DNA of 64,000 nucleotides from an uncultured bacterium (GCA_964606385.1 CAZSFZ010000003.1:29493-93492), one strand, 5' to 3'; positions 7,256-46,191 are shown, counted from the first letter of the stretch. Numbers and translations are program-made. Notes: generated by a model from the sequence alone, not told the origin.

Positions 7256-8992
7256 TCAATCGTTCAAAATGCAGGTGCGGTTCTTGCCTTCGGCTTTGGC
7301 CTTGAGGAGGGCATCCTGCGCGCGTTCGACGACTTTCTGGGGATTTTTTTCATTCGGCTGAAGGACGGAAACCCCGGCGCTGACCTTGACGGAAAGGGTT
7401 TTGTCCCCGGATTTGAAGGCGGAACGCTCGATGGTTTTGCGGATCCTCTCGGCGACGCCAAAAGTCGCGGTCGCGAGGTTATAACCCACCAGTAACACGA
7501 TAAAAACGTCCTCGCCGTAACGGCCCGCGATGTCGGGCATCGCGCGCCCCTTGGTTCGGATCGAATCCAGGATCACGGAGGCCACGTGTTTTAGGACGTT
7601 GTCCGCCATTTTGGCGCCGTGCTCTTCATTGAACTTTTTGAAGTCATCAATATCGAGCATAATCACAGAGAAGGGCTTGTGGAATGTCCGGGAGTAATTG
7701 AGCGCCTGGGACAGGAAGGTATTTACATAGCGCATGACATAAAGCCCTGTCAGCTCATCCCGCACCGCCAGGCTCAGGAAATACATCCTTTCCTTGTACT
7801 CCTGGATCTTCACGACCGCGAAAGAGATCAGAAAATAAGCTGCGATCAGAAAAAGAGGCGCCACCACTCCCGTCCAGATCCCGGCGTAGGAAAAAAGCAG
7901 GAAGGAGGCCAGGACCCAGATCCCCGCCATTACGAAAGCCATCAGCAGCGAAAAAACGCTCCGGAACGGGATCATCACGCTCATCGTCAGTAGCGCCACC
8001 AGCACCAGCGCCGCCGCAAACACATAAGAGTGGATCTTCCGGATGTACTGCCCGGTCAGGAGGGTATTGATGATATTCCCCAAAGCGCCGATCCCCGGGC
8101 TCGCGGACTCGAGCGGCGTGATCTTGAAATCAGAGGCCGTCATCCCGATGACGCATATTTTATCCTTAAAATCCTTTTCGCCGAGCGGTGCGGCCTGTCC
8201 CTTGGAGACTAACGCGTAGCTATTGAGCACATCGACGAACGGGTAATAGCCGGAAGCGGCATTCCAGCGTTGCGCCCAGTGGATCATGAGGTTGTTCTGT
8301 TCATCGCGCGGAAAATCGCAATCCTGGATCGTCGGCACGGGTTTCCCCAGATAATCATAAGCCACCCGGATCCCGAGATGCGGCACAAGCTGCTGGTTCA
8401 ATTTGACGAACGGGAATATGCGGCGGACCACATGGTCGGGGTCCTGGTTGTAATTGATATGCCCGATCCCCTTGGCCTGTTCGCTATAGACCGGGGAGGA
8501 TTGATTCACGTAATAATAATTTTTGAAACCCTCGGATTCGAAGGAAATGGGAAGGTAAACATTCGAAGTTTTCTTGAACTCCTCAACAAGCGCTTGATCA
8601 TCCTCGGGGGTCTCGGCATCCTGAGTAAAAAAAAGATTGAACACGATGGCCTTCGCGCCCCATTCCCGGAGGATGCGTGCGATCGCGGCGTAATACCGCT
8701 TGGGCCACGGGAAAGGCCGGATGGCCTGCAGGCTGTTCCGGTCGATCCCGATATACACGACCGCAGGGTCGACCTTGGGAGAGGGCTGGTATTTCAGAAA
8801 TTGATCGTAGAAATAATTGTCCAGGGAACGGAAGAAGGACGACCCTGAAAAGTTAAGGCACAGGGCCAGCACGAGGATAAAGCCGAGGATCTGGATCGTG
8901 CGCAGGGGGGTGAAGAAAAGGACCAACTGTCTCAAGGGCTCGGTCGCGTAGCCCTTCCGTTTTTTAACCAGACCTGCCGGCGCTTTTTCCAT
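7256..8992 (-). CDS. CHASE2 sensor domain - TM - GGDEF-domain protein with a degenerate active-site motif (GEDVF), so likely a non-catalytic c-di-GMP-related receptor.
   Basis: The CHASE2 signature is IRPFPWPKRYYA. Transmembrane segments follow, then a C-terminal GGDEF fold (DIDDFKKFNEEHGAKMADNVL...GRYGEDVFIVLL). GEDVF replaces GG(D/E)EF and there is no RxxD I-site. The likely start is MEKAP at 8992 with a GGGAGG RBS; the track's longer N-terminal extension to 9328 is doubtful. Confidence 0.75.
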   Translation of the reverse strand: MEKAPAGLVKKRKGYATEPLRQLVLFFTPLRTIQILGFILVLALCLNFSGSSFFRSLDNYFYDQFLKYQPSPKVDPAVVYIGIDRNSLQAIRPFPWPKRYYAAIARILREWGAKAIVFNLFFTQDAETPEDDQALVEEFKKTSNVYLPISFESEGFKNYYYVNQSSPVYSEQAKGIGHINYNQDPDHVVRRIFPFVKLNQQLVPHLGIRVAYDYLGKPVPTIQDCDFPRDEQNNLMIHWAQRWNAASGYYPFVDVLNSYALVSKGQAAPLGEKDFKDKICVIGMTASDFKITPLESASPGIGALGNIINTLLTGQYIRKIHSYVFAAALVLVALLTMSVMIPFRSVFSLLMAFVMAGIWVLASFLLFSYAGIWTGVVAPLFLIAAYFLISFAVVKIQEYKERMYFLSLAVRDELTGLYVMRYVNTFLSQALNYSRTFHKPFSVIMLDIDDFKKFNEEHGAKMADNVLKHVASVILDSIRTKGRAMPDIAGRYGEDVFIVLLVGYNLATATFGVAERIRKTIERSAFKSGDKTLSVKVSAGVSVLQPNEKNPQKVVERAQDALLKAKAEGKNRTCILND

Positions 8993-9197
8993 AGCCTCCC
9001 CAAAACGATTATCCATATAAAGGAATTCGGGATAATTTACGACCATACTGGTCGAAAACTTATCTTTTTCCAAGAATTTTTTATTTTTAGAAAGTCCATG
9101 CTCTTTGCGAAGCTCTGGGGTATAATCCCGAACCTTTGAAGGGGTGCTGGTTTGCCACATCGCCCGCTTTCCTTTCCTTATGCATTGAGGAGCATCC

Positions 9198-9896
9198 ATG
9201 GCCATACAAGGCTGGTTTAAGTTCAAGAAAATAAGGCTTCTCCTGGCGTGGGGATCGATCCCTATTCTCATAATTTCGTCCCAGATGACCGACGCCACAT
9301 TCCGCTGGGGCGTGATCCTCTTGATCATCGGGGAATTGATCCGCTTCTGGGCGCTTGGCTATATGGAACGCAAGGGCGAAAAACTCGCCATGAGCGGGCC
9401 CTACGCCTTCGTTCGTAATCCTCTTTATGTCGGTAATTTTTTTCTGGGGCTCGGCGTTGCCGTGATCGTCTGGAACTGGGTGATCGGGATCATCTTCCTG
9501 GTCGGGTTCCTGGGGATCTACACCGGAACCATCCTGGGTGAAGAAAAACATCTGCGGGAGATGTTCGGAAAAACCTATGACGATTACTGTAAAAATGTCC
9601 CTTCGTTCCTCCCGCGCCTGACCCCTTATAGAGCTCCCGAGAAGGATTCGTTTCAGTGGGGCCGCATCATCAAGCACCATGAGTACATCACGGTGCTCGG
9701 GATCATCCTCATGACCATCCTTATTCACCTTTACGATGACCTTTTCCTTTCCAAAGAACCCGTGGCGCACGAGATCCCGCTTATCATCGCGGCGGTGGCC
9801 GTGATCCTCATCCTCGTGTTGGAGCGGGTGTTTGTCAGCAAGCTTCACATCACATTCTTCGAACGCCTGCGCGAAAAACACACGCCCAAAAAATAA
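9198..9896 (+). CDS. Isoprenylcysteine carboxyl methyltransferase / phospholipid methyltransferase (ICMT/PEMT) family membrane protein.
   Basis: Multi-TM protein with MSGPYAFVRNPLYVGNF, the ICMT/PEMT family motif. A GAGGA RBS lies upstream of the ATG. Confidence 0.6.
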   Translation: MAIQGWFKFKKIRLLLAWGSIPILIISSQMTDATFRWGVILLIIGELIRFWALGYMERKGEKLAMSGPYAFVRNPLYVGNFFLGLGVAVIVWNWVIGIIFLVGFLGIYTGTILGEEKHLREMFGKTYDDYCKNVPSFLPRLTPYRAPEKDSFQWGRIIKHHEYITVLGIILMTILIHLYDDLFLSKEPVAHEIPLIIAAVAVILILVLERVFVSKLHITFFERLREKHTPKK

Positions 9897-9954
9897 TCTC
9901 CGTTTTCTTCACGATCTCCTCTCGGATATTTTTTCGCAGAAAAGCCGAAAAACG

Positions 9955-9984
9955 TTGACCCGGCCGCGTGAAAGAAAATATAAT
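9955..9984 (+). promoter_or_regulatory. Sigma70-type promoter for the homospermidine synthase operon.
   Basis: TTGACC (9955-9960), an 18-bp spacer, then TATAAT (9979-9984). A GGAG RBS at 9999-10002 precedes the ATG at 10007. Confidence 0.45.
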
Positions 9985-10006
9985 CTGAAAAAAATCACCG
10001 GAGAAC

Positions 10007-11464: not shown

Positions 11465-11482
11465 ACGCGCGAAGACCGCCCT

Positions 11483-11830
11483 ATGATCAAGAACAAAGCG
11501 TCTCAAGAGATCGAAAAGCGTGAAGCGATGCGCGGCGGCACCGGCTCCGTCACCCTCCGTCATTACTTCAAGCCGGAAGAGATCAAGGCCCGTACGCGTC
11601 TTTGCGCAGAACTCACGCTTCCTCCCGGAGCGAGCATCGGTACCCATGACCACACCGGAGAGGACGAGATCTATATCATCCAGAAAGGCCGGGGCCTCAT
11701 GACCGACGGCGGCAAGGAATTCACCGTCACGGCCGGCGACGCGATCCTGACGGGCCAGGGCGCGTCCCACTCCATCAAGAACACGGGCCCGGAAGATCTC
11801 GTGGTCACAGCCGTCATCATTAAGTATTGA
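11483..11830 (+). CDS. Cupin domain protein.
   Basis: A 115-aa protein with the two-His cupin motifs (GTHDHTGEDEIYIIQKG ... GASHSIKNTG). Confidence 0.6.
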   Translation: MIKNKASQEIEKREAMRGGTGSVTLRHYFKPEEIKARTRLCAELTLPPGASIGTHDHTGEDEIYIIQKGRGLMTDGGKEFTVTAGDAILTGQGASHSIKNTGPEDLVVTAVIIKY

Positions 11831-11905
11831 GATTAAAAAATTCACCTAAGACCCACCTCGCCTCGCAGGCGGGGTGGACCACTCCTACGAGGTGTGAGAG
11901 GTACC

Positions 11906-13021: not shown

Positions 13022-13027
13022 AGATCC

Positions 13028-13092
13028 CACTTCGCGGGGGACGTGGAACGGGAAACCAATTCGTTCAGCGTTCCCCGTTAACCGCTTCCCGG
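13028..13092. repeat. REP-like palindromic element, copy a, of the GGGGAACG / CCGTTAACCG family.
   Basis: ggaacgggaaac...cgttccccgttaaccg, in the intergenic region downstream of the Fe-ADH gene. Confidence 0.5.
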
Positions 13093-13125
13093 CACAGAAA
13101 TAAAAAGGCATCCATTTTTATTTCT

Positions 13126-14046
13126 GTGTTAGCATGCCTCATGCAAGAAAAACCTTCCCTCGGCTATTGGCTTCAGCACCTCATCGTCAAATATCTGGCC
13201 CTTCTCGCGACAGTGCTTCCCGTGGAAGTCTCACATCGCATTGCCTGCGGGTTTGGGACCCTATCCTACTGGATCCTGAAAAAACGCCGCAAGATCGCGG
13301 TTGAAAATATTACGCATGCTTTCGGAAATTCCATCTCTGACTCGAAGAAACAAGCGATCGCGCGTTCTGCTTTCCAAAGCGCCGCGCTTTCCATGATGGA
13401 ACTTTTCGTAGTCGAGAAGATCAAGAAAGAAGCCGCGGCGCGTTTCAAGCTGATCGGCAATGAGTTCCTGGAGGAAGCCTTTTCGAAAGATCAAGGTGTC
13501 GTGCTCGTGATCTCGCATCTGGGTTCCTGGGAATATCTTTCTTTTCTTCCCTACTTCACCAAACAGCCGTGGTCGGTCGTGGTCAAAGACATTAAAAATC
13601 CTTACCTCGATAAGGCCATTGATGCCATGCGCCGCGTCATGACGGTCAATCCGATCGCAAAGGACAGCTCAGTCCGGACGATCCTCCAGGAACTCAAAGC
13701 CGGACGCGGCGTCGCGATCCTGGTCGATCAGTGGGCCGGCAAGGACGGCCTCTGGGTTGATTTTTTCGGCACCAAGACTTCCACGACCTCGATCCCCGCC
13801 CGGCTTTCCGAAAAGACCGGTTGCGCGCTCGTTTCCGCCTGCTGCCTCCGGACGACCCCCGGGCATTATGAGATCCATATCGAAAAACCGATCGTTCATG
13901 ATCTGAATGAACCGGGCTGGGAGAAGACGGTCACTCAAGAGCTGAATGAGGTCCTCGAGCGCCAGATCAAGGCTCATCCTGAACAGTGGCTTTGGGGCCA
14001 CCGCCGATGGAAAGAAAAACCCCATAACCTCCGGGAAACTTCCTGA
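13126..14046 (+). CDS. Lipid A biosynthesis lauroyl/myristoyl acyltransferase-like protein (LpxL/HtrB family, LPLAT superfamily), copy 1.
   Basis: An N-terminal TM helix, then ISHLGSWEY (the H-x4-E/D acyltransferase motif) and a C-terminal ...HPEQWLWGHRRWK that is typical of the LpxL family. The start is ambiguous: GTG at 13126 or ATG at 13141. Confidence 0.7.
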   Translation: MLACLMQEKPSLGYWLQHLIVKYLALLATVLPVEVSHRIACGFGTLSYWILKKRRKIAVENITHAFGNSISDSKKQAIARSAFQSAALSMMELFVVEKIKKEAAARFKLIGNEFLEEAFSKDQGVVLVISHLGSWEYLSFLPYFTKQPWSVVVKDIKNPYLDKAIDAMRRVMTVNPIAKDSSVRTILQELKAGRGVAILVDQWAGKDGLWVDFFGTKTSTTSIPARLSEKTGCALVSACCLRTTPGHYEIHIEKPIVHDLNEPGWEKTVTQELNEVLERQIKAHPEQWLWGHRRWKEKPHNLRETS

Positions 14047-18197: not shown

Positions 18198-18259
18198 AAA
18201 AAGATTATAACCTTCTTGAAGGTAATGCTAAAGGTCAAAGGTTCGGGATACGGCACCGA

Positions 18260-18954: not shown

Positions 18955-18965
18955 ATTTTTTGCGG

Positions 18966-31251: not shown

Positions 31252-32199
31252 TCAAATCCCCGGAGGCGGTGTCCGCCATCGCCGGTGGGCCCAAAGCCAG
31301 TCGCCGGGACGCTTCCGGATCTCTTCTTCGATCTTCGCGACATACTGCTGGGTGTTCGCTAAAAGATCCGCTTGAAGATTTCCGGTCCGGATCAAGGGGA
31401 ATTCCGGGCCATAGTGAACCGTCGAGCGCCCTTTTTCATTACGATAAAAAAAGGCGGGGAAAACCGGCGTTCCGTATTTCAGCGCCAGCATCGCGGGTAG
31501 CGTGCTCGTAGAAGCCTTCCTCCCGAAAAAATCCACCCACACCGCCCCGCGGCTCTCATGCTGGTCGATCAAGACCGCCACGATCTCTTTCCTTTTGAGA
31601 CACGCGATGGAATCTTTGACCGCTCCGGATTTCTCGATATTTTTGAGATTGGCCGCCTCACGCAGCCGGCGGAGGTGGGCGTAAACATAAGGATTTTTAA
31701 GCGGCCGGCCCACGGCGTTCGTGAAAAGTCCGAACGGCTTGATCGGGATCGAAAGCCACTCCCAGTTCCCGAAATGCGAGACGATCGCGATCGCCCCTTT
31801 TTCCTTTTTCATCCACTGCAAGAATGCTTCCATCTCGGGCTTTTCGATATAACGCTCGGGGGAAGCGCCCGCGGGGACATTCCGGACCAGCTCGAATGCC
31901 AATTTAATGATGCTGGCCATCGAAGCCTCCGCGATCTTGAGAAGCTCCGCGTCGGGCTTCTCCTTCCCGAAAGCCAGCCGCAGGTTTTCCATCATGACCC
32001 TGCGCCGGACACCGAGATACCGAACAGCTAGCATCCCCAGGCTGTCCGCGATTCTGTAGCTGATACGGAGAGGGATGAGGCGGAATAAGAACGAAAGGAA
32101 CCGGAAGGCGGCATATTCGAAAAAGAATAAAATTTTTTTGAATGGGGACATTATTCTATTTTTCGAGAGCGTTCTGAAATGTTTTAGACGTGTGCGCAT
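31252..32199 (-). CDS. LpxL/HtrB family lipid A biosynthesis acyltransferase-like protein, copy 2.
   Basis: VSHFGNWEW (H-x4-E motif) and the C-terminal PGDWLWAHRRWR. It is a paralog of the gene at 13126-14046. Confidence 0.7.
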   Translation of the reverse strand: MRTRLKHFRTLSKNRIMSPFKKILFFFEYAAFRFLSFLFRLIPLRISYRIADSLGMLAVRYLGVRRRVMMENLRLAFGKEKPDAELLKIAEASMASIIKLAFELVRNVPAGASPERYIEKPEMEAFLQWMKKEKGAIAIVSHFGNWEWLSIPIKPFGLFTNAVGRPLKNPYVYAHLRRLREAANLKNIEKSGAVKDSIACLKRKEIVAVLIDQHESRGAVWVDFFGRKASTSTLPAMLALKYGTPVFPAFFYRNEKGRSTVHYGPEFPLIRTGNLQADLLANTQQYVAKIEEEIRKRPGDWLWAHRRWRTPPPGI

Positions 32200-35699: not shown

Positions 35700-35801
35700 A
35701 ACAGCTTTCTGGGAGAAAATTTAATAGTTCTCAGGGGATCGCGAGGCACCATGATGCGGGAAAAACATCCGGTTTTCAAGCAGTACTTCCCATCGGAATC
35801 C

Positions 35802-36425: not shown

Positions 36426-36436
36426 AGAAGCCCCGC

Positions 36437-37987
36437 TTAGTAATCAAAAAGTTTTCCGTAATCTCCACGGCTTTTCAAATATTTTATCATTTCGTCATCA
36501 AACGGCTGAACGCCTTGCAGGGCCCCTTGATCATCCAGGATCAAAAACTGGTCCAGGTCGCTATCAAAAGAATCGTAGTCTTGTTGAAGCTTCTCGTCCA
36601 GCGATGACCGGCTCACGCTACTCCTCAGATCATACCAAGCCTGGGCATCCGCCACAAAAGCGCTATATTCCTGAAAAAGAGAATTGCTGGACCGCGGGCC
36701 CGTCCAACCTTCCGGCGCGACCCACCCGGCAGGCGGCAACCCGTACGCGGGAAGCGGGGCGTTCGGATCCGCTTGAATTCTCTCTTGATAATCAAGCAGG
36801 TCTTTGTCCCAAATATTATGAAGTATTTCGTGAGCCAAAAGCGATGAGGTCATTCCTTCGGGAGCTTCGGAGAATCTCTCATCGACGACGATCACACTCT
36901 GCACAACGTCATTGTTCTCCGAAATGGCATGCGTGTAGTAAGCATAAGCGCCATTGTTGCCGGGAGTTCCTCCATATAAAATTTTTGTGGTCTCCCCATC
37001 AAGAAATGTAATCTCATCCTCGCCGCTGGTAATGGCCTGACCGGGAAACTGAAACGCATAAGCGTCGATCGCATCCAGGGCATTCTTGCTCGAGGTAACC
37101 ATCTTGTCAAAGTCCGCATTATTCCCGGCCTTGCCGCAGACCTCGGAAGAGTATTCTGACTGATATTGGACTCCCTGGTGCTCAACTATCGTTTTTGCCC
37201 GGAAACAATAGGTGCGTCCATTCCTTCCTTGCTCCAGATCCCCTGCAAAATCGGAGCAAATCGTTTCCGAAGTTCCTCCTATATATTCCCAGTCGGAAGT
37301 AACCCCTTTATACTCTTCCCTCATTTGCATGATATACCCCAAAGCATCCGCATAGGGTGTAAAACTGAAATCTAACCATCCTCCCGTGTTGGAAAAAACC
37401 TCTAGATCCTGAGGCGCAAGCACCGTGTAATAAGTGCCGCCCCCTATCGTGTATGAGAATGAGCCCCCGGAACCTCCGCCCGAACCTCCGCCTCCAGAGC
37501 CGCCGCCGGACCCGCCGCCTTCAGAGCCGCTGCCGGAACCTCCTCCGGAACCGGCTCCTCCAGAACCCGAACCATAATTTCCGCTTGATCCTGAATTAAA
37601 ATTCACAAAACCATCTTTATTGATACCGATAGTATCAAGCCATTCGCTTAAAGGGCCGACAGGCGTTGCCAGCGCCAAAAAATCTACCTCATCCGCGTTG
37701 ATAATGCTGTAATCGTAAAAACCTCCTCCCACGATAAGCCCCAAGACAGATTCGATCCCCGACTCGTCCTCGGCGCCAACGAACTTCCCAAGCAATTCAT
37801 ACATACGCAACTCAGCGAGGCGTATGGAACCGAGGTTATTAACCGCCTCCGCCTTCTTGGATTGTTCGATCTGGTGGACCACCCGGGTGATCGCAATGGT
37901 CGCAAGAACCGCGATAATGACGATCGAAATCAACATTTCAAGAAGGGTCACCCCTTGCTGCTTTTTACGCGTAAAAATGGTTTTCAA
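36437..37987 (-). CDS. Type IV pilin-like (prepilin N-terminal methylation site) protein fused through a Gly/Ser-rich linker to a large C-terminal domain carrying an HExxH zinc-metallopeptidase-like motif.
   Basis: The N-terminus MKTIFTRKKQQG|VTLLEMLISIVIIAVLATIAI is a class III signal peptide, with Gly at -1 and Glu at +5. A short pilin-like region follows, then GSGSGGAGSGGGSGSGSEGGGSGGGSGGGGSGGGSGG, then a ~330-aa domain with LLAHEILHNIWD. No pilus assembly genes are in the window. Confidence 0.6.
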   Translation of the reverse strand: MKTIFTRKKQQGVTLLEMLISIVIIAVLATIAITRVVHQIEQSKKAEAVNNLGSIRLAELRMYELLGKFVGAEDESGIESVLGLIVGGGFYDYSIINADEVDFLALATPVGPLSEWLDTIGINKDGFVNFNSGSSGNYGSGSGGAGSGGGSGSGSEGGGSGGGSGGGGSGGGSGGSFSYTIGGGTYYTVLAPQDLEVFSNTGGWLDFSFTPYADALGYIMQMREEYKGVTSDWEYIGGTSETICSDFAGDLEQGRNGRTYCFRAKTIVEHQGVQYQSEYSSEVCGKAGNNADFDKMVTSSKNALDAIDAYAFQFPGQAITSGEDEITFLDGETTKILYGGTPGNNGAYAYYTHAISENNDVVQSVIVVDERFSEAPEGMTSSLLAHEILHNIWDKDLLDYQERIQADPNAPLPAYGLPPAGWVAPEGWTGPRSSNSLFQEYSAFVADAQAWYDLRSSVSRSSLDEKLQQDYDSFDSDLDQFLILDDQGALQGVQPFDDEMIKYLKSRGDYGKLFDY

Positions 37988-39273
37988 CGGATTTCTTCCC
38001 CTCGGATGGCTTCTTCAAGAATCTTTTTATTCTGGGCAGCTTCACGCAAGCCAGGGTCGATCTCAAGCGCCCGATTCCACTCTTTAAGAGCTTTATCCGC
38101 ATCATTTAAAAAAGCATGCGCAAGCCCCTTGTTCGCGTGCCCCTTAGCATAAAACTCGTTAGATGCCAACACCCTCCCAAAAACATCAAGGGCCTTACGG
38201 GGCTCATTCATTTTGATATAAAGGAGACCTAAATTATTTCCGGCAACCCAATCACGCGGATCTTTCTCAAGAATCTCCTCATAAATCACGGATGCTTTGG
38301 CGAGTTCTCCTTGCCCGGCAAGAAGTTGCGCCCGGACATGTTTTACATTTTTATTGCCCGGGTCACTTCCGGAGATCCGGCCAAGATATTCTTCAGCCTC
38401 TCTGAAATTATTCTCTTTTAAAAGGACTTTTGCCATCCCGATCTGGGCATCGGCATTTTGGGGCTCTTTTTTTAGCACCATCCCGTAGTAGCGTTTGGAC
38501 TCATCATAGTCCCCCGTCAATCGGTAAAGTTCAGCCAAATTTAAGAAAGGCTTTGAAAAAACCACGGGGCCGGACGTCAAGGGAAGAAGAATTTTCTTCG
38601 CTTCCTCAAAACGTCTAAGCTGGATAAGCGCAGCGGCCTGATTATTTAGAAAAGGAGTTTCGTTGGCCCGCTTAAGGGAGCGGTAAAGATCGTATGCTTT
38701 TTGATATTGCCCCAAGGCGTAATAACCGTTCGCCACACCCGATATCGCCACTTCATCGTCGGGTCTCAACTTCAGATACTCCTGGAAAACCTCCACGGCC
38801 CGCGGAAAATTCTTGACGGTAAGGTACAGATTGGCCAGATTCAGAAGGATTTCAGGCTTTTGGGATTCCCCTTCCAAGGCTTTCAAAAAACTTTCCTCCG
38901 CCTTTTGAGCCTCGCCGGCAGAAGCATACGCGCTTCCCAGATTCGCGTAAATCACCGTATTGATAGAGTCAGAACCCAGAGATTGCTCGAAGCTTTCCGC
39001 GGCTTCCTTAAAACGGCCGCTCTTATACATCTCGACGCCTTTTGCAAAATAAACCGCTTTCCCGCGGACCTCCACCAGTTCTTCCTTGGAACCGCGCCAG
39101 ACCATTTTTATATCAGATTTTGGAATCTTAACTTTTCCTCCGGGCGCCTCAACAATCACAAATTGGTCGTCTTCCCTTAAGACCTTGGCTTCAATCGCAT
39201 TACCATTTTTGAGTTGAATGATATCCGCAAGGGCTAAGGGAGAAATCGTGGCAAAGCAGAACAAAAAAAGCAT
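37984..39273 (-). CDS. TPR repeat protein with an N-terminal signal peptide.
   Basis: MLFLFCFATISPLALA, then many TPR units through the C-terminus. The track's longer ORF (to 39585) reads through the tRNA genes and is rejected. The start codon abuts a tRNA-like 3' end. Confidence 0.6.
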   Translation of the reverse strand: MLFLFCFATISPLALADIIQLKNGNAIEAKVLREDDQFVIVEAPGGKVKIPKSDIKMVWRGSKEELVEVRGKAVYFAKGVEMYKSGRFKEAAESFEQSLGSDSINTVIYANLGSAYASAGEAQKAEESFLKALEGESQKPEILLNLANLYLTVKNFPRAVEVFQEYLKLRPDDEVAISGVANGYYALGQYQKAYDLYRSLKRANETPFLNNQAAALIQLRRFEEAKKILLPLTSGPVVFSKPFLNLAELYRLTGDYDESKRYYGMVLKKEPQNADAQIGMAKVLLKENNFREAEEYLGRISGSDPGNKNVKHVRAQLLAGQGELAKASVIYEEILEKDPRDWVAGNNLGLLYIKMNEPRKALDVFGRVLASNEFYAKGHANKGLAHAFLNDADKALKEWNRALEIDPGLREAAQNKKILEEAIRGEEIR

Positions 39274-39443
39274 GGCGGAGAGGGGGAGATGCGGCTCCCT
39301 TCGCTTCGTTGCGGGTAGGCCACCCGCCCCGCTCTTATGACATGAGTCATAAGCGCCTGCGGGGCTCCCTTCGAATCTCCCGTCCAAAGAACGGGAGCCC
39401 GAACCGTCATGATCTCCCGTTTTTTTTGATTGAATAGAAAACA
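39273..39443 (-). other. tRNA-Ser-derived structured element or pseudo-tRNA. It repeats the 18-nt 3' terminus of tRNA-Ser (tggcggagagggggagat, including CCA) at 39273-39290 and contains nested hairpins.
   Basis: There is an exact 18-bp direct repeat with 39444-39461. Between the copies the following hairpins occur: ACGGGAG-16nt-CTCCCGT, CTCCCGT-TCTTTGG-ACGGGAG (mutually exclusive with the first), GCGGGT-aggcc-ACCCGC, and CCCCGC..CTTATGAC-atga-GTCATAAG..GCGGGG. The region reads like a T-arm (GGGAG-ATTCGAA..TCTCCC) interrupted by about 80 nt. It has no standard cloverleaf. Confidence 0.3.
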
Positions 39444-39533
39444 TGGCGGAGAGGGGGAGATTCGAACTCCCGATACGCTTGCGCGTATAACAGTTTTCGA
39501 GACTGCCGCATTCGGCCACTCTGCCACCTCTCC
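39444..39533 (-). tRNA. tRNA-Ser (anticodon CGA), class II with a long variable arm. CCA is encoded.
   Basis: The sequence on the minus strand is GGAGAGGTGGCAGAGTGGCCGAATGCGGCAGTCTCGAAAACTGTTATACGCGCAAGCGTATCGGGAGTTCGAATCTCCCCCTCTCCGCCA. The acceptor is GGAGAGG/CCTCTCC, the anticodon loop is CTCGAAA, the variable-arm hairpin is ATACGC-GCAA-GCGTAT, and the T-arm is GGGAG-TTCGAAT-CTCCC. Confidence 0.9.
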
Positions 39534-39726
39534 GTGGTATGGAGGAAAATGCTCGGACTTTGCAGGATCCGCGTTCCGGATACAAAAGCGTTTAGAGTCT
39601 ATGTATTTCTTTAAGGTTGGTCAAGGCGAGAGAATAGGGCTCTCCGCGGCTTCCGCCATTATCGTAAGATGCCCCAAAACGATGAATCTAATTTACATTT
39701 CGGAGGCCCTTCCTTAAAATCATGCC

Positions 39727-40902
39727 ATGCACGCATGCCTGGGCCTATTCATTTTCCTGCTCCCCTTATCACTCGCCTCCTCCAGCGCCGTGGAACCCGA
39801 GATTTTTTTAAGCACCGTCTATTTTGCCCTATTGCTGGTCTTCCTGGCCGTCTGGATCATCGTCAAGGGACTTTCCTTTAAAAAACTGGGAACGATCCAA
39901 TATCCGGTAATCATCTTGTCGCTCTTTCTGGTCATGGCGGTCCCGTTCACGCTCAACCGGGCAAACGGCCTTTGGGAGATCACCCAGTTCACAGTCAGCC
40001 TGATCCTGTTCCTCGTGATAGCGCCTCTCGAGGAGGATAAAAAAAAGCGCCTCGCCGCGGAGATCGTGCTGGGAGCACTGGCCATAAGCCTTCTCGCGAT
40101 CTTTCAATATTTCTTCGGTTTCCAGCTCCTATCGGATTATGTCCAAAGGACAAATATCACCGATCCCTTCGTCTTAGAAAAGATCGCGCAGCGAAGGGTC
40201 TTTTTCCCGTTCCCGACCCCGGGGATCCTGGGGGGATACCTTGCCATGGCCCTCCCCCTCGCGCTTTGTTCCGGCAAACGGGCTTTTTTTGCAATTCCCA
40301 TCGGCCTGGCGCTGCTCCTCACTCAATCGCTCAGCGCCCTGCTGAGCCTTATGGTGATCCTCGCCGCATTTTCCGTATGGAAGAACCGTTCTTCAAAAAA
40401 GAAGGTTTTTCTCCTGCTCGGGCTCGGCATGGTCCTAGGAGGCCTGTTCGCCCTGAGAACAAGCAATGTTCATCAGCATCTGCTACCCTCATTCTCAATG
40501 ACCGCACGGCTTGATTACTGGAAAGAAACATTGCGGGTTATTTCCGCGCATCCCTGGCTGGGTACCGGATTCGGGAATTTCGACCTGCAGTCATCACGAT
40601 ACGCCCATAATTCCTTCCTTCAATTATGGGCTGAGACAGGTGTGATCGGCATGACGGTTTTTATCTGGTTGTGGACTGCCATCCTCAGGAACGGTTGGAA
40701 AAGCATCCCGTCCTTTTACAAGGATCAACAGAAATGGGCCTTGCTCGCCGGGATTTGTATTTTTTTGGTCCACAACCTGATGGATTTTACCCTTTTCCTT
40801 CCGGCCGTAAGTTTTATCTGGTGGGTCATGCTGGGGATGTTCGCCGTCCCCGTTTCACAGGAAGCAAAGGAAGGGCTTGCGAGCGCTTCGAAACGAATTT
40901 AG
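39727..40902 (+). CDS. O-antigen ligase family protein (WaaL/Wzy_C domain).
   Basis: About 10 TM segments plus a periplasmic loop with RYAHNSFLQLWAETGVIG, the O-antigen ligase motif. Confidence 0.7.
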   Translation: MHACLGLFIFLLPLSLASSSAVEPEIFLSTVYFALLLVFLAVWIIVKGLSFKKLGTIQYPVIILSLFLVMAVPFTLNRANGLWEITQFTVSLILFLVIAPLEEDKKKRLAAEIVLGALAISLLAIFQYFFGFQLLSDYVQRTNITDPFVLEKIAQRRVFFPFPTPGILGGYLAMALPLALCSGKRAFFAIPIGLALLLTQSLSALLSLMVILAAFSVWKNRSSKKKVFLLLGLGMVLGGLFALRTSNVHQHLLPSFSMTARLDYWKETLRVISAHPWLGTGFGNFDLQSSRYAHNSFLQLWAETGVIGMTVFIWLWTAILRNGWKSIPSFYKDQQKWALLAGICIFLVHNLMDFTLFLPAVSFIWWVMLGMFAVPVSQEAKEGLASASKRI

Positions 40903-40906
40903 GCCG

Positions 40907-42214
40907 CTACAAAGATTCCGCCGCTCTTTTCCCGTCCCAGATCGCATCCTCCATGGACATATAAGTCCATGAGCCATAACGGCCGCAGGGAATGATCCCG
41001 TGCCCGCTCAGGAATTTCAGGATCTTTTGAGTGGCTTCTTGATACTGCCGGTCGTAGATCGGATATCCATACCGGATATCATTCACATCTTTCGCGCAGA
41101 TCCTGTCTTGCGGCCCGAGCAATCCTTTCTTTCTGAGATCCCGGAGGATGCGGGTCCCGATCTTCTTCTTGGAAACCGCCTTGTAGCGCGAGTAAGAAAC
41201 TTCGGCATAAAAAGATCTTTGGCGTAATGGAGCAACACCGGAAGAATAATGATGCGGAAATCCCACCCGGAAGAAACACGTTTCGGGCTGCGGGAAATAG
41301 ATCCAATGCCGTTTGGGGTCCCGGCCGTTGGCGCTCACGCCCAGGTTCAGATTATAAATGGAATTCCAGCGCAGCTTCGCCAAGGCTTTTTGAATTGCCG
41401 CGGGCAGCTTCCGGATCAGGCGGGACATCTCGGGTAAAGGGATCGTCGAGATCAGGGTGTCATATTTTTCTTTTTTCCCGGAAACCAGCGTCACCTCTTT
41501 TTTATCAAGATCGATCCGCGTGATCCCGCTTTTAAGCCGGATATCCTTAAGCCGCCGGGCAAAAGCCTTCGGAAGTTTTTCGATGCCGCCCGCGCGGGGA
41601 TACCAAAAATAAACGTTATAACCCAGCTGGTTCTTGCTCTCGTTCTTCGCGCCTTCGAGCACGCGCCTGAGGGACGGGACCGGAACCATCCCGGAAAGCC
41701 AATCGCAGCTCAGCTCTTTCGGCGGCACTGTCCAGAACTTCGCGTTATACGGCTCCATGAAATGACGGGCTATTCCGGCCCCGAAAGTCCGCCGGGCCCA
41801 TTGAGAAAAATTCATATTTTTGCCGGGCGAGTCTTTACGTTTTGTTTTTTTTGCGCGAAGGAATCCGTCCAGGCATTCCTTGAGGATCTTGGGAGGAAGA
41901 CCGAAGAGGTTGGCCTGAAAAGGATAGGGCGTGTAACGCTCCCCCATGGACACCCAGGCGCTCCTCGGCTGTTTCACGCACTGCTTGCCGAGCAATTTCC
42001 GGACGAGCCCGGCAACGTAGGGTTTCTTGAAATGGAGCAGATGTCCGCTGTAGTCAAAAGTAAAACCGCGGACATGTTTGGAGCGGCAAAGCCCGCCGAC
42101 CTCCGATTCTTTTTCAAAAATGCGGCTTGGGATCCCTCTCTCGCGCAAATGCCACGCCGCGCTCAATCCGGCGATACCGGCCCCCAGGATCAGGATCTTT
42201 TTTCGAGCTTTCAA
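40907..42214 (-). CDS. FAD-dependent oxidoreductase (amine oxidase / protoporphyrinogen oxidase-like Rossmann protein) within a glycan cluster.
   Basis: KKILILGAGIAGLSAAWHL is the GxGxxG dinucleotide fold. The proposed start is TTG at 42214 with a GGTGAAGG RBS, overlapping the upstream stop. The track's ATG at 42343 would overlap the upstream gene by 130 bp. Confidence 0.55.
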   Translation of the reverse strand: MKARKKILILGAGIAGLSAAWHLRERGIPSRIFEKESEVGGLCRSKHVRGFTFDYSGHLLHFKKPYVAGLVRKLLGKQCVKQPRSAWVSMGERYTPYPFQANLFGLPPKILKECLDGFLRAKKTKRKDSPGKNMNFSQWARRTFGAGIARHFMEPYNAKFWTVPPKELSCDWLSGMVPVPSLRRVLEGAKNESKNQLGYNVYFWYPRAGGIEKLPKAFARRLKDIRLKSGITRIDLDKKEVTLVSGKKEKYDTLISTIPLPEMSRLIRKLPAAIQKALAKLRWNSIYNLNLGVSANGRDPKRHWIYFPQPETCFFRVGFPHHYSSGVAPLRQRSFYAEVSYSRYKAVSKKKIGTRILRDLRKKGLLGPQDRICAKDVNDIRYGYPIYDRQYQEATQKILKFLSGHGIIPCGRYGSWTYMSMEDAIWDGKRAAESL

Positions 42215-43191
42215 ACCTTCACCCGGCTCATTTTTTTGATCAGGACAAGGCTTCCCAACCCCGCCAGGATTAGGATCAGGATCCCGAAAAGGTTCGAAGC
42301 TTGGCTGAGCATGGCGCCTGCGGCGACAAAAAAGAGGGTCCATCCCATCATCGCCGCGAGAGTTCTCTTTTTCGAATAACCTTTTTTCAGGAATCTCAAG
42401 GCGATATGGTCCTCACTTTTATTGAAAGCGGAGGTCCCCTTGCGGACGCGCATCAGGATCAGAAAAAGCGTGTCCAGGATGGGGAAACCGAGCAAAAGCA
42501 GCGGGGTCAGAAGCGCGACATTCCTCTCCAGGGTCGCGTAACGCGCGGTGATCGCGAGCGCCGCGAGCACCAGTCCCAAAAAATGGCTCCCATTGTTCCC
42601 CATGTACACCTTGGCCGGCGGAAGATTAAAGATCCAGAACCCAAGGACCGCGCCTCCCAGGATGGCGGAAACGATGAAGGTCAGACTGTCGCCGTTCACG
42701 GCGGAGATCACGCAGAAGCCCGAGAGGATCACGAGGGCCGTCCCTCCCGCCAATCCGTCCATCACATCCAGAAGATTCATGGCGTTGGTAATCGCGATGA
42801 TCCAGAAAAGAGATATAGCGATATTCAAAAGATTTCCCGCGTACGCGAAATCGGTCCGGACCCCGAAACCGACCAGGATCGCCGCAGCAACAAGCTGGAC
42901 GAAAAATTTTTGGGCCACGGACAGCTCCCGATGATCATCCAAGATACCCGTGACAAGCATGAAGGCCGAAGCGATCACGATCCCTTTAATCTCCCGCGGA
43001 AGTCCGGCCAGAGAGGTTCCGGTCAGCAACAGGACTATCCCGAAGGCCAGCCCCATGCTGACCCCGCCGATCGAAGGAACGCCCTTGGTGGTTAAAAACT
43101 TCCAGCGGGCGGAAGCTTCTTTAAAAAAAAGCACAAAAAGCGCGGACAGAAGAAATCCGCTCAAAGCGCCCCAAAAAGAACTAGCGATCAC
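42211..43191 (-). CDS. Polyprenyl-phosphate N-acetylhexosamine-1-phosphate transferase (WecA/MraY/TagO family, GT4-type initiating enzyme).
   Basis: A multi-TM protein with NAMNLLDVMDGLAGG, the family NxxNxxDGIDGL motif, and DDxxD-like ILDDHRE. Confidence 0.85.
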   Translation of the reverse strand: MIASSFWGALSGFLLSALFVLFFKEASARWKFLTTKGVPSIGGVSMGLAFGIVLLLTGTSLAGLPREIKGIVIASAFMLVTGILDDHRELSVAQKFFVQLVAAAILVGFGVRTDFAYAGNLLNIAISLFWIIAITNAMNLLDVMDGLAGGTALVILSGFCVISAVNGDSLTFIVSAILGGAVLGFWIFNLPPAKVYMGNNGSHFLGLVLAALAITARYATLERNVALLTPLLLLGFPILDTLFLILMRVRKGTSAFNKSEDHIALRFLKKGYSKKRTLAAMMGWTLFFVAAGAMLSQASNLFGILILILAGLGSLVLIKKMSRVKV

Positions 43192-44338
43192 AGGCTGTGC
43201 CTTTCGTTCCGGTCAATTGCCGGTAAAGTTCCTCGTGAGATTTCACCATCATCTTTGTCTCAAACCTTTCATCCACGCACTCTGCTGCTTTTAGCGCGAT
43301 GCGTTTCTTCGGGCCATCCTCCCGGAGAAGCAAAGTGAGCTTTTTTAACATAGAAGGCACATCATGGCAAGGCGCAAGAAATCCCGTTTCCCCTTCCAAG
43401 ATCACTTCCGCGATCCCTCCCGTATCGGTCGCCAGAACCGGAACACCGCTGGCCATAGCCTCAAGGACCGCGATCGGCAATCCTTCCCAAAGGGAGATCA
43501 ACACGAGGACGTCCATCGCAAAGAGGACCCGGGCCACATCTGTCCGCCAACCCGTCAGAATAAACCGGGAGCGCAAGCCGGATCTTTCGATCTGACGTTC
43601 AAGCTTCTTCCGAAGGACACCGTCCCCCACCATTAAAAACCGGGCTTGGGGAAAAAGCTGCCCGGCTAAAGAAGCCAGCCGCACGAAATCCTCAAGGCCT
43701 TTTTGCGGTTTGAAGCAGGCGATGGTCCCTATCACCAGCGCGTCTTCACTGAGGCCGAGTTCCTTGCGGATCGAGGCGTCCTTCGCGCCAAATTCAGCCC
43801 TGGAGATGCCGTACCGTATCAAGCCGTATCGATCTTCGGAACCTATTTTGAGGCCGAGCCCTTTTTGCTTGTCATGATCGGAAACCACTACGATCCTGTC
43901 CGTGAATTTCGCGCTGAATTTTTCGAGCTTTTTGTAAAGTCCGCAAATCAAGGGGTTCTGGAAATCGTGGAAGGACCAGCCGTGGACAGTGTGAAGAATG
44001 ATCTTGGTTTTGGCCAACGCCGCGGCCCAACGGCCTAAAATACCCGCTTTCGAGCTGTGGGTATGGACCATATCGATCCGGTTCTTCCGGATGAAAGCCC
44101 TGAGCTCCATCAAGGCTAGAAGATCCCGTAGCGGGTTGATCAGCCTTTGCAAATACCGGGACCGGTACAGGCTCAAACCGGGAATGGCCAAGGCTTCTTC
44201 CATGAGGAACCCGTCCTTGGCGGTAAAAAGAAAAATGTTGTAGCGGTCTTGATCGAGATTTTTGATCAGGCTCAGAAGCTGTTTCTGCGCGCCGCCGAGC
44301 TCCAACTGAGTAATCACATAAAGGATATTGATCTTCAT
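43181..44338 (-). CDS. Glycosyltransferase family 4 (group 1).
   Basis: The N-terminus MKINILYVITQLELGGAQKQ. The C-terminal GT4 region carries the E-x7-E-like motif (LEAMASGVPVLATDTGGIAEV). Confidence 0.85.
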   Translation of the reverse strand: MKINILYVITQLELGGAQKQLLSLIKNLDQDRYNIFLFTAKDGFLMEEALAIPGLSLYRSRYLQRLINPLRDLLALMELRAFIRKNRIDMVHTHSSKAGILGRWAAALAKTKIILHTVHGWSFHDFQNPLICGLYKKLEKFSAKFTDRIVVVSDHDKQKGLGLKIGSEDRYGLIRYGISRAEFGAKDASIRKELGLSEDALVIGTIACFKPQKGLEDFVRLASLAGQLFPQARFLMVGDGVLRKKLERQIERSGLRSRFILTGWRTDVARVLFAMDVLVLISLWEGLPIAVLEAMASGVPVLATDTGGIAEVILEGETGFLAPCHDVPSMLKKLTLLLREDGPKKRIALKAAECVDERFETKMMVKSHEELYRQLTGTKGTACDR

Positions 44339-44418
44339 GCTGGTCTCGGCTCTTAGTCTATGGAATTCGGTTCAGGTTGAAGTTTGGCCATAAGCCGATA
44401 GAGAACGGATGCCGCTGG

Positions 44419-46191
44419 TCACAAGGTTTCCATGCAAACACGGTTCTTCCCCGACGCCTTGGCCCGGTAGAGGGCCGCATCGGCGCGATGAACCATCGGA
44501 TCGGGAACATTTTCCCCGGGACGGCGCACGGCAACCCCCAGACTGATCGTCACCCGGATCGGCTTCCCCTCCCATTCGAACCGGGTCTCCTCGACTTTCT
44601 TTCGGATCCTTTCGGCCGCGATCTCGGCCGCTTCGCGCAGGCCGGCCTTTCGGAGCATGATAATGAATTCCTCGCCCCCGTAACGGGCCGCGAAATCGAT
44701 CTCGCGGAAGGCCCGGCGTTTCCGGATAAAAGCGAGAAGGATCGCCGCGACTTTTTTAAGCACCATGTCCCCCGCCGGATGTCCGTAGGTGTCGTTGATC
44801 TGCTTGAAGTTGTCGATATCCATCAGGATGACGGATAAAGGCTGGTTTCGCACGCTCGCTTCCCGCACGATATGATTCATGATCAAACGGAAATGCCGGA
44901 TCACATAGAGCTCCGTCAGACCGTCCCGCGTCGCGAGATGGAAAAGCTGGGATTTTTCTCGAATCGCCGTCGCCTGGACATAGATAGCCGAAAAAACAAA
45001 CAGGCTGAGCATGAGCAGGACGGGGTAGACCACATAGAACCAGACGTGCCATTTCATCAAAGCAAAAAAGCAGAAAACGATCCATCCTGCGACGAGCAAA
45101 AGCCCGGCGACAAGAGACCAGATGCCGCTCAAAGTCACGAACAGAAAAATCGCCAGAAAACCGCTCCCCAGAAGACACAGGAAATTCCCCGTGGCCGAAA
45201 CGGGGCGGATCCAGTTGCCCGTTAATGCCGCGTTCAGCACCTGAGCGTAAATACCGATCTGGGGGTATGAAATATTTAGCGGGGTCACCTTAAGCTCCGC
45301 GGCTCCTGGCGCCGTTGGTCCGACAAGACAGATCTTCCCCGCGAGCGCGGCCGGATCAATGAGGGGACGCATTCCTTTCTGGATCGCGTAAAAACTGTGG
45401 ATCAGGTCCGCGTAGTTGTAGCGCACGAATCCACGGTCCCAGACCCGGCTCCACGGGATGAGCATTTTCCCCTGCGCATCTTCATATTTTTTCCATTCTT
45501 GCGGCGCCGGAACGGCTAGCTGCATATGGTCAAAAGCCACGCGAAGCGGAAGAAAATGATGGCCTTCACCCCCCTCGTCAGCAAAAGGTTCGAACCGGCG
45601 CAAGATCCCGTCCGGATCCGGGCCAAGGAAACTGTGTCCTGTTACTTTTACCTCTTTTTCGAATTCCGGCATGGCGTGGACCCAGACCTTCTGTCCCTCG
45701 CTTTTTTCCAGTACCACCGGCATGCCATGCACCCAGAATTTCTTTTCTTTTTTGGGCTTCAGTTCCACTGGAATATAAATGGGAGTTTTGATCTTCGCGA
45801 GCGATTGAGCCAGGTCCTGATCATTCTTGGGATCCGTCGGTTCCGAAAGATCGAGATCGAAAATGATCGCGGCCGCCTTCCATTCGTTTAAAAGGCGCGC
45901 CATGATGGCGTGATAGCTTCTCGGCCAAGGCCATGCCCCGATCTCATCCAAGGCGGTTTCCGAGATTTCGATCAGCGCGATGTCCGGGTGGGCTTGCCCC
46001 CAAGCGATATGTTTGAGGAAACTATCACGGGCAAGATCTTCCATCCGGTCTAACTTGCGGGTTCCCAAAAGAAGCGCGAAAACAATGATGATGAGAAAGT
46101 AGGTCCCGAACCGGAGCCAGTCTTGGTAGGAGCGCGAGCGGGTGCGCGTAAAAAGTTTTTCGGTCGCTTCGATCGGTTCGTGGGCCGTCAT
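44419..46191 (-). CDS. CHASE2 sensor - TM - GGDEF diguanylate cyclase (canonical GGEEF with an RxxD I-site).
   Basis: The CHASE2 signature is IGAWPWPRSYHA. After the TM segments come REIDFAARYGGEEFIIML and the D-I-D metal site (LMDIDNFKQIND). It is a paralog of 7256-8992. Confidence 0.85.
   Translation of the reverse strand: MTAHEPIEATEKLFTRTRSRSYQDWLRFGTYFLIIIVFALLLGTRKLDRMEDLARDSFLKHIAWGQAHPDIALIEISETALDEIGAWPWPRSYHAIMARLLNEWKAAAIIFDLDLSEPTDPKNDQDLAQSLAKIKTPIYIPVELKPKKEKKFWVHGMPVVLEKSEGQKVWVHAMPEFEKEVKVTGHSFLGPDPDGILRRFEPFADEGGEGHHFLPLRVAFDHMQLAVPAPQEWKKYEDAQGKMLIPWSRVWDRGFVRYNYADLIHSFYAIQKGMRPLIDPAALAGKICLVGPTAPGAAELKVTPLNISYPQIGIYAQVLNAALTGNWIRPVSATGNFLCLLGSGFLAIFLFVTLSGIWSLVAGLLLVAGWIVFCFFALMKWHVWFYVVYPVLLMLSLFVFSAIYVQATAIREKSQLFHLATRDGLTELYVIRHFRLIMNHIVREASVRNQPLSVILMDIDNFKQINDTYGHPAGDMVLKKVAAILLAFIRKRRAFREIDFAARYGGEEFIIMLRKAGLREAAEIAAERIRKKVEETRFEWEGKPIRVTISLGVAVRRPGENVPDPMVHRADAALYRAKASGKNRVCMETL

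Follow-up and report, generated by a model that had tools for sequence, protein, structure and literature searches.

A paralogous pair of CHASE2-GGDEF proteins in an uncultured Omnitrophota bacterium: a predicted canonical diguanylate cyclase and, most likely, a conserved pseudo-cyclase sensor

Two genes encoding CHASE2-transmembrane-GGDEF proteins, here called W1 and W2, are carried by a 64,000-nucleotide stretch of DNA (the window) from an uncultured member of the Omnitrophota. W1 is most likely a conserved pseudo-cyclase sensor, whereas W2 has the features of a canonical diguanylate cyclase. With a probability of about 0.6, we take W1 to be a CHASE2-gated pseudo-enzyme regulator and W2 to be a signal-gated, product-inhibited cyclase, the two being old paralogs. 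The pairing of an active with a dead GGDEF protein is of an already familiar type, as are degenerate GGDEF domains, and the new result is the pattern seen at the level of the family. The features of the two genes are as follows:

7256-8992, minus strand: W1, CHASE2-TM-GGDEF protein (578 aa) with a degenerate active site, likely a pseudo-cyclase sensor (Pfam, ortholog lengths, AF2)
8834-8890, minus strand: N-terminal transmembrane helix of W1, residues 35-53 (hydropathy peak 2.01; AF2 helix 29-48)
7988-8872, minus strand: CHASE2 sensor of W1, residues 41-335 (Pfam; top-residue frequency in the orthogroup 0.78 on average)
7811-8029, minus strand: membrane helices of W1 following CHASE2, residues 322-394 (hydropathy; AF2 helices 322-340, 345-370, and 377-410)
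7277-7768, minus strand: GGDEF domain of W1, residues 409-572 (Pfam and TIGR00254 above cut-off; model superposition)
7532-7546, minus strand: RAMPD at the I-site position of W1, residues 483-487, with Arg at -8 and Asp at -4 from the R of RYG (invariant in 40/40 orthologs)
7502-7516, minus strand: GEDVF of W1 in the GG(D/E)EF position on the beta2-beta3 hairpin, residues 493-497 (PleD alignment)
44419-46191, minus strand: W2, predicted canonical CHASE2-TM-GGDEF diguanylate cyclase, 590 aa (Pfam; most orthologs also have 590 aa)
45154-46086, minus strand: CHASE2 of W2, residues 36-346 (Pfam, 5.1e-35)
44440-44934, minus strand: GGDEF domain of W2, residues 420-584 (Pfam; PleD alignment)

The order CHASE2, transmembrane region, GGDEF is common to both proteins, as the first-pass annotation had proposed from the same positions, and the Pfam matches and the identity of the two sequences along their full length (31% over 558 columns, E=1e-96, far beyond chance) bear this out. 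The Pfam E-values amount to 3.5e-44 (CHASE2) and 5.1e-32 (GGDEF) in W1, with 3.7e-39 for the GGDEF domain of W2. All the scores exceed the respective cut-offs: 151.7 bits in W1 and 121.7 bits in W2 for CHASE2 (PF05226, cut-off 26.3), 111.3 and 134.5 bits for PF00990 (cut-off 23.8), and 124.9 and 155.3 bits for TIGR00254 (cut-off 37.4). The motif coordinates were checked by translation; FPWPK of W1 (8699-8713) and WPWPR of W2 (45919-45933) lie inside CHASE2. The open reading frame of W1 extends mechanically to 9328 (690 aa), but more than 20 orthologs (20+) measure only 576-581 aa, and at 690 aa the frame would run into the neighboring ICMT-family gene; the start was therefore placed at 8992. 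According to hydropathy and the AF2 model (mean pLDDT 86.7), the CHASE2 domain of W1 is located between the N-terminal helix and the C-terminal membrane helices, its extracytoplasmic topology being predicted, and the last of these helices appears in the model to run on as a stalk into the GGDEF domain. Superposition of the model on solved GGDEF domains (3ign, 4zvf, 6hbz) gave target-normalized TM scores of 0.90-0.93 and an rmsd of 1.3-1.7 A, and the GGDEF fold is intact as modeled. When the full-length model was compared with the PDB, the top 50 matches listed were all GGDEF-domain proteins and no CHASE2 structure was among them.

In the neighbor-joining tree, the W1 group (on a long stem) and the W2 group are each monophyletic, and together with the canonical proteins P0039-44 they form one clade, all with 100/100 bootstraps. 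A single contig of a relative carries orthologs of both genes at a distance of about 36 kb, with 58% identity to the respective counterpart in the window in either case. The W1 orthogroup is narrow (40 sequences, Omnitrophota, 51-100% identity), while that of W2 comprises 121 sequences; no contig was on record when the exact W2 protein (P0121) was looked up.

Translation confirmed the canonical reading of W2: RYGGEEF is found at 44665-44685 and REID, at the I-site position, at 44695-44706. The catalytic residues checked are canonical in 120/121 W2 orthologs, apart from R446, which is K or R, and GGEEF is present in 116-120 of the 121. At the I-site, RxxD occurs in 65/121, the true I-site Arg in 66/121, and R390 in 120/121. 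These residues suggest that W2 is an active cyclase, probably inhibited by its own product.

The active site of W1 differs from this pattern. HMMER alignments (with 1w25 and others) place GEDVF, part of RYGEDVF at 7502-7522, opposite GGEEF of PleD, the changes being G369E, E370D (tolerated), and E371V, and AF2 strands 488-491 and 496-502 flank the GEDV(F) segment. That GEDVF might be misaligned, with a canonical motif nearby in W1, had been raised in the first-pass annotation; this is ruled out, as the alignment is ungapped and no other GG[DE]EF occurs in the sequence. The second Gly (G369) is absent in 39/40 orthologs (E30/D8/P1/G1), and E371 varies (E25/V12/Q2/T1). As far as is known, GG(D/E)EF of an active cyclase tolerates change at its first position only, the substitutions within the motif otherwise abolishing activity (PMC6637768); W2 keeps the motif intact, whereas W1 does not. 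In the literature, nothing relevant was found on GEEEF, GDEEF, or GEDVF, and only GEDEF is documented, in CC3396, where the domain has no cyclase activity (PMC4823724). Judging from the motif and from precedent in other proteins, W1 most likely cannot make c-di-GMP. Residue conservation in the two orthogroups (40 vs 121 sequences) adds weight to the proposal that one copy is active and the other inactive.

Within the GGDEF domain of W1, conservation is highest at the I-site face, consisting of the loop R-x-K-G-R-A-M-P-D and helix alpha3, ATATFGVAERIR; the best-conserved segments are GRAMPDIAGRYG (0.935) and LATATFGVAERI (0.928). An I-site comprises RxxD, with its Asp four residues ahead of the Arg of RYGG, and R390 on alpha3. 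W2 has this arrangement, whereas in W1 the Arg is placed four residues ahead of the Asp instead of three (at -8, not -7), as translation and the PleD alignment confirmed for RAMPD beside RYGEDVF. The spacing RxxxD is found in 40/40 orthologs and RxxD in 0/40; within R-x-K-G-R-A-[ML]-P-D, none of the 40 departs from R(-12), R(-8), P(-5), or D(-4), R390 (R516 in W1) is R in 36/40, and the family carries a specific Tyr at PleD position R313. The first-pass annotation had W1 without an I-site, as a sensor or a scaffold independent of c-di-GMP: the canonical site is missing, but independence does not follow, since the loop replacing it is invariant and R390 is kept, so that a ligand may bind at this face.

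It has to be considered whether W1 is a c-di-GMP receptor in which the RAMPD loop and R516 form a remodeled RxxxD I-site joining the CHASE2 signal with c-di-GMP supplied by W2 or by further cyclases. Such a receptor would be one particular form of the output step in our preferred explanation, and on balance we find it unlikely. The invariance of the loop, set against the I-site Arg present in about half of the active W2 family, speaks in its favor, as does the fact that degenerate GGDEF domains are counted among c-di-GMP receptors (PMC6637768). With a Pro beside the Asp and a shifted Arg, however, the geometry may be different, and no effector gene is conserved beside W1, where neither a conserved partner gene nor an output domain on the protein itself was found. 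Moreover, Arg(-8) may match the invariant structural Arg(-10) of W2, which is not the I-site Arg, in which case its conservation would be uninformative on ligand binding. The loop, alpha3, and the Tyr at R313 might constitute an undescribed RxxxD variant of the I-site binding c-di-GMP or another guanine nucleotide; W1 would then be the first of a set of transmembrane second-messenger receptors gated by CHASE2, with its active paralog at its side, an idea we likewise hold to be unlikely. When the W1 GGDEF domain was searched against 1.84 billion representative proteins, about five clusters with RxxPD...RYG[ED] were retrieved, all from the same orthogroup, with no wider family.

Cyclases need dimerization to act. 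Since W1 and W2 have a common architecture with a long stalk helix, and their orthologs have stayed together in the relative, W1 might alternatively be a signal-dependent dominant-negative subunit that regulates cyclase output by pairing with W2, or with another canonical CHASE2-GGDEF paralog, in heterodimers that are not productive. In Leptolyngbya boryana, overexpression of inactive variants of Dgc2 led to intermediate phenotypes, for which the authors suggested a dominant-negative effect (PMC10581220). The identity between W1 and W2 is nevertheless only 31%, and conservation in W1 is lowest in the transmembrane/stalk region (mean 0.667), which also shows the highest dN/dS. In addition, since the W2 orthogroup is much larger than that of W1, many genomes probably carry W2 without W1. 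We regard this explanation as quite improbable.

Slightly less probable again is that W1 is a GTP sensor of the CC3396/PdeA GEDEF type, in which the dead A-site binds GTP and reports its level to a partner. In the GGDEF site, N335 and D344 bind guanine, K332 binds phosphate, and D327 and E370 bind Mg (10.1101/2025.08.22.671821). The guanine (N335, D344), Mg (D327), and phosphate (K332, K442) residues expected of an active cyclase are all present in both W1 and W2, and W1 keeps R366 as well; its position-2 Gly-to-Glu change is that of the GTP-binding, EAL-activating GEDEF domain (PMC4823724). On the other hand, W1 has no EAL or other output domain, and these residues drift in the orthogroup: D344 is D28/N10 (n=40), D327 is D34/G3/E2/S1 (lost in 6/40), N335 is lost in 6/40, and H340 is variable, mostly Y. 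Altogether, 19 positions conserved in the W2 group are relaxed in the W1 group, including K332, D336, H340, I342, G343, D344, E370, and E371. This drift of the guanine and metal sites indicates that GTP binding is not what the family has conserved.

The same relaxation weighs against W1 still being a diguanylate cyclase, or making another nucleotide product, by means of a non-canonical motif. Most of the orthologs read GEEEF or GDEEF and keep both acidic residues, and activity in other species is documented for the first-position variants AGDEF and SGDEF (PMC6637768). The second Gly, however, is part of a tight hairpin, CC3396, which has lost it, is inactive as a cyclase, and W1 itself also lacks E371 (Val), all of which makes continued catalysis very improbable. 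Despite the degenerate motif, a decaying pseudogene or relic can be ruled out for practical purposes, since the orthologs are intact and full-length over 51-100% identity, several segments are invariant, and dN/dS is low (0.07-0.17 for the protein as a whole, 0.02-0.18 for its GGDEF domain, values that are rough as dS is saturated, >1); the W1 protein as a whole is, by these estimates, under purifying selection.

The surroundings of W1 include the following:

823-6873, minus strand: autotransporter with 10 PATR repeats and a beta-domain, adjoining W1
8993-9197, no strand: divergent spacer between W1 and the ICMT-family gene (alignment of 8 orthologous spacers)
9198-9896, plus strand: ICMT/PEMT-family membrane methyltransferase, conserved divergent neighbor of W1 (Pfam PEMT and ICMT)

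The autotransporter does adjoin W1 in the window, but the control of adhesion suggested on the strength of this adjacency was not upheld when the gene downstream of W1 orthologs (six contigs) was identified and the autotransporter was searched by tblastn against all the fetched loci. Only in the closest relative (L001, 84% identity) is the W1 ortholog followed by a PATR autotransporter; in the other loci the downstream gene encodes an MFS, TauE, or SDF protein, and a conserved link with an adhesin was rejected. The ICMT-family gene adjoins W1 orthologs in 11 loci, and the best NCBIfam match of its product is LmtA, far below the cut-off. As regards the divergent promoters proposed at 8993-9197, GATTATAC is invariant in the 8 spacers and reads TATAAT at 9121-9126 (plus strand, facing the ICMT gene), and TTGGAA-17-CA(A/G)TAT is conserved on the W1 strand (TTGGAA at 9073-9068 and CAGTAT at 9050-9045, minus strand, in the window); a sigma-70 consensus scan of 6700-9400, however, gave 0 promoters vs 2.1 expected by chance, and the case for these promoters is weak. 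No terminator was found between W1 and the autotransporter. A Pfam scan of 44 proteins, including W1 and W2, yielded no PilZ, EAL, or HD-GYP partner gene in the window. Rfam and tRNA scans yielded two tRNAs only.

The degenerate motif, the relaxed catalytic residues, and the constrained I-site face taken together make W1 most likely a non-cyclase regulator. Based on the architecture, motif states, family-wide conservation, selection, and synteny computed here, we infer both its enzymatic inactivity and an output through the I-site face. W1 and W2 would be old paralogs stemming from an Omnitrophota-specific expansion of CHASE2-TM-GGDEF sensors. The periplasmic CHASE2 of W2 would sense a ligand, its cytoplasmic GGDEF domains would dimerize and make c-di-GMP by condensation of two GTP, and the product, once bound to the REID I-site, would exert feedback inhibition on the synthesis. 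On the stem of the W1 orthogroup, the second Gly of GG(D/E)EF would have been replaced by Glu or Asp and, in the subclade of the window's W1, the metal-site Glu by Val as well, after which the substrate-binding and catalytic residues would have drifted while strong purifying selection held the sensor domain, the fold, and above all the I-site face. W1 would then signal through this face by binding a nucleotide (most obviously c-di-GMP), a protein partner (a canonical paralog, for instance), or both.

Almost no published work was found on c-di-GMP signaling in the uncultured Omnitrophota. The pair provides a clean, phylogenetically dated case of a duplicated sensor cyclase of which one copy is now most likely a conserved pseudo-enzyme, and the comparison between orthogroups reveals which surface is still constrained after the presumed loss of catalysis, namely the I-site face, with R483, D487, and R516 as candidate residues. 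If the RxxxD surface does bind c-di-GMP, the motif-based censuses of receptors need widening; otherwise, this is a routine refinement of the annotation of W1, from "diguanylate cyclase" to "CHASE2 domain-containing protein, degenerate GGDEF".

Among the known systems, PelD, PopA, YdaK of B. subtilis, and YeaI/CdgI of E. coli, which are degenerate GGDEF-only receptors binding c-di-GMP at the I-site, resemble W1 in being GGDEF-only, often membrane-bound, with a dead A-site, and kept beside active cyclases, and set a precedent for a receptor. To our knowledge, the known degenerate-GGDEF receptors all keep the exact RxxD; W1 shares the dead A-site with them but has RxxxD throughout its orthogroup. 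The class as such is established (PMC6637768). CC3396/PdeA of Caulobacter crescentus shares the position-2 Gly-to-Glu change with W1 and is cyclase-dead yet folded, with a regulatory role (PMC4823724), as we propose for W1; it has GTP binding and an EAL phosphodiesterase output, whereas W1, although carrying the GTP-binding residues, has no EAL and therefore does not belong to this type, and it further differs in having lost E371, in being membrane-bound behind CHASE2, and in that its guanine-binding Asp (D344) is not conserved in the family. W2 resembles PleD and WspR in every catalytic residue checked, in RxxD five residues ahead of GGEEF, and in R390, but its input is a CHASE2 membrane sensor where theirs is a receiver domain, and it scores 165 bits against the PleD equivalog, far under the cut-off of 474. 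The sole genetically characterized CHASE2-linked GGDEF protein found in the literature is Dgc2 (CHASE2-TM-PAS/PAC-GGDEF), a functional analog of W2 in which the extracellular CHASE2 drives the GGDEF output (PMC10581220); it is cyanobacterial and carries PAS/PAC between the membrane and GGDEF, whereas in W1 and W2 the last membrane helix leads straight into the GGDEF domain.

Two paralogous proteins encoded in the window share the CHASE2-TM-GGDEF architecture: W2 is canonical, and the active site of W1 is degenerate.

7256-8992 (-): W1, 578 aa, CHASE2 and GGDEF domains
44419-46191 (-): W2, 590 aa, CHASE2 and GGDEF domains, with the same architecture as W1

The mechanical ORF of W1 reaches 9328; since it thus overlaps the divergent ICMT-family gene, and since more than 20 W1 orthologs are 576-581 aa long, the start was placed at 8992. 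The Pfam matches are strong in both W1 (CHASE2, 3.5e-44; GGDEF, 5.1e-32) and W2 (CHASE2, 5.1e-35; GGDEF, 3.7e-39), and both pass the TIGR00254 domain cut-off, while neither reaches any equivalog cut-off. Aligned over 558 positions, the two proteins share 31% identity (E=1e-96). Translation of the exact coordinates confirmed the motifs quoted earlier, FPWPK, RAMPD and RYGEDVF in W1 and WPWPR, REID and RYGGEEF in W2, and the overall observation on the pair in the first-pass annotation is correct.

In HMMER alignments of W1 to PleD, WspR, DgcB and other proteins, GEDVF lies opposite GGEEF without any gap, so that the substitutions in PleD numbering are G369E, E371V and the tolerated E370D; no other GG[DE]EF was found in the W1 protein. 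W2 is canonical, its REID coinciding with PleD R359-x-x-D362. Roles of the PleD residues were taken from a 2025 structural study: N335 and D344 bind the guanine, K332 and the main chain of F331 the phosphate, and D327 and E370 the Mg (10.1101/2025.08.22.671821). W1 itself retains D327, K332, N335, D344, R366, R390 and K442. Its AF2 model (49-sequence alignment, pLDDT 86.7) shows a normal GGDEF fold, in which the beta2-beta3 hairpin bears GEDV, and fits solved GGDEF domains with deviations of 1.3-1.7 A; the CHASE2 domain (residues 41-335) is also modelled with high confidence. The PDB matches that Foldseek lists for the full-length model are all GGDEF-domain proteins, and no solved CHASE2-like structure is among them.

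Homologs of W1 and W2 carry Candidatus Omnitrophota labels. The W1 orthogroup is compact (n=40, 51-100% identity, the next homologs dropping to about 36%), and that of W2 is larger (more than 120 clusters at 43-100% identity). In a neighbor-joining tree, 100 of 100 bootstraps recover each orthogroup as monophyletic and also unite both with a third, canonical group (P0039-44) in an Omnitrophota clade separate from the other CHASE2-GGDEF proteins; a long stem underlies the W1 group. A search with the W1 GGDEF domain among 1.84 billion representative proteins yielded about five clusters with the W1 signature, all belonging to the W1 orthogroup: the family is narrow and lineage-specific. The same query matched eight separate stretches of P0242, an unusual metagenomic multi-GGDEF protein of 1274 aa, the motifs of which include GEDEF, AGDEF and GGEEF.

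The residues found at five PleD positions differ between the two orthogroups.

Residues at PleD positions in the W1 (n=40) and W2 (n=121) orthogroups
G369: W1 group, E 30, D 8, P 1, G 1; W2 group, G 120
E371: W1 group, E 25, V 12, Q 2, T 1; W2 group, E 120
D344: W1 group, D 28, N 10, E 1, H 1; W2 group, D 120
D327: W1 group, D 34, G 3, E 2, S 1; W2 group, D 120
H340: W1 group, mostly Y; W2 group, H 120

At nineteen positions, conservation is 95% or more in the W2 group but less than 75% in the W1 group. These include K332, D336, H340, I342, G343, D344, E370 and E371, which together make up the substrate and metal site. Most W1 orthologs carry GEEEF or GDEEF, and GEDVF is a further step confined to the subclade of the window. 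Despite this drift in the active site, the whole W1 protein is constrained: comparison with five orthologs gives a dN/dS of 0.07-0.12 for the full protein and 0.02-0.13 for its GGDEF domain, and comparison with a 65%-identical ortholog gives 0.17 and 0.18, respectively, all of these values being rough because dS is saturated.

The best-conserved GGDEF segments of the W1 orthogroup, GRAMPDIAGRYG and LATATFGVAERI, correspond to the loop and helix of the I-site face of PleD. All 40 W1 orthologs share R(-12), R(-8), P(-5) and D(-4), numbered from the R of RYG. The constraint on this face suggests that W1 may signal through that surface, contacting either a nucleotide or another protein there. It is possible, however, that the invariant R(-8) matches the invariant R(-10) of W2 rather than the I-site Arg, which is retained in only 66/121 members of the W2 family. 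None of the 40 orthologs has a canonical RxxD. The earlier description of W1 as lacking an I-site and being independent of c-di-GMP is unproven.

A block upstream of W1 is conserved in 5/6 contigs read and at 11 loci by tblastn. In it, the divergent ICMT/PEMT gene precedes saccharopine-dehydrogenase-like, cupin, Fe-ADH, LpxL-like and TRAM-methyltransferase genes. The proposed link between W1 and the adjacent adhesin finds no support in conservation, since the downstream neighbour varies (MFS, TauE or SDF at loci without the PATR autotransporter) and PATR occurs 3' of W1 only in the window and its 84%-identical relative. The C-terminal region of the autotransporter (823-6873(-)), including the beta-domain, shares 65% identity with a PATR protein of 3068 aa in this relative (L001, 11825-21031); the passengers show only 38-43% identity and differ by about 1000 aa in length. 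The passenger is fast-evolving. The best NCBIfam match of the ICMT/PEMT-family gene (9198-9896(+)) is LmtA, the Leptospira lipid A 1-phosphate methyltransferase, but the gene scores 76 bits where membership requires 325 and so falls outside that family. The window also contains two genes for LpxL-type lipid A acyltransferases (13126-14046 and 31252-32199), which hints at lipid A modification.

Divergent promoters had been placed in the spacer between W1 and the ICMT gene (8993-9197). No sigma-70-like site was detected there by a consensus scan, but in the alignment of eight orthologous spacers (58-100% protein identity) GATTATAC (9120-9127) is invariant, reading TATAAT at 9121-9126 (+) toward the ICMT gene, and TTGGAA-17-CA(A/G)TAT is conserved on the strand of W1. 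Divergent promoters are plausible candidates here. Two of the relatives' spacers (L008 and L010) carry an additional insertion of about 80 nt (GGGCGGTCATAACTACCCGTT...).

The W2 gene lies in the order MnmE-W2-TPR-N_methyl-PsbP_2-DnaX-RecR in 58-64%-identical relatives, MnmE being upstream. The window differs from them by two additional blocks, within 39727-44338 and 46301-49477: a glycan cassette of four genes (GT4, GT family 4, FAD amine oxidase and Wzy_C) separates W2 from tRNA-Ser, and a class II ribonucleotide reductase separates W2 from MnmE, which looks like lineage-specific insertion beside a tRNA. At its 5' end, the mechanical TPR ORF of 533 aa (37984-39585(-)) contains this tRNA-Ser(cga) (39444-39533(-)), so the start of the TPR gene has to lie downstream of the TTG listed; its orthologs are 432-443 aa long. 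On the contig of one relative, the W1 and W2 orthologs, each 58% identical to its counterpart, are about 36 kb apart, which makes both the pair and the distance between its members old. The scan of 44 window proteins revealed no PilZ, EAL or HD-GYP gene. Elsewhere, 58555-61532(+) may hold an inositol-phospholipid synthesis cluster: a myo-inositol-1-phosphate synthase gene, one for a CDP-alcohol phosphatidyltransferase and, after them, an ORF of 399 aa without a Pfam match.

The residue patterns of the two families strengthen the proposal that one paralog is active and the other inactive. Judging from its sequence, W2 has every expected feature of an active, product-inhibited cyclase. The only GG(D/E)EF variants known to stay active are altered at the first position (PMC6637768). 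W1, like the GEDEF domain of CC3396, which has no cyclase activity, has lost the second Gly of the motif (PMC4823724); as it also carries E371V, it very probably lacks cyclase function. Because the residues that bind guanine and metal vary from ortholog to ortholog, the W1 family is unlikely to have been conserved for GTP sensing as in CC3396. Degenerate GGDEF domains kept as regulators are already a well-known class, of which W1 would be a new lineage-specific member with an unusual invariant RxxxPD loop.
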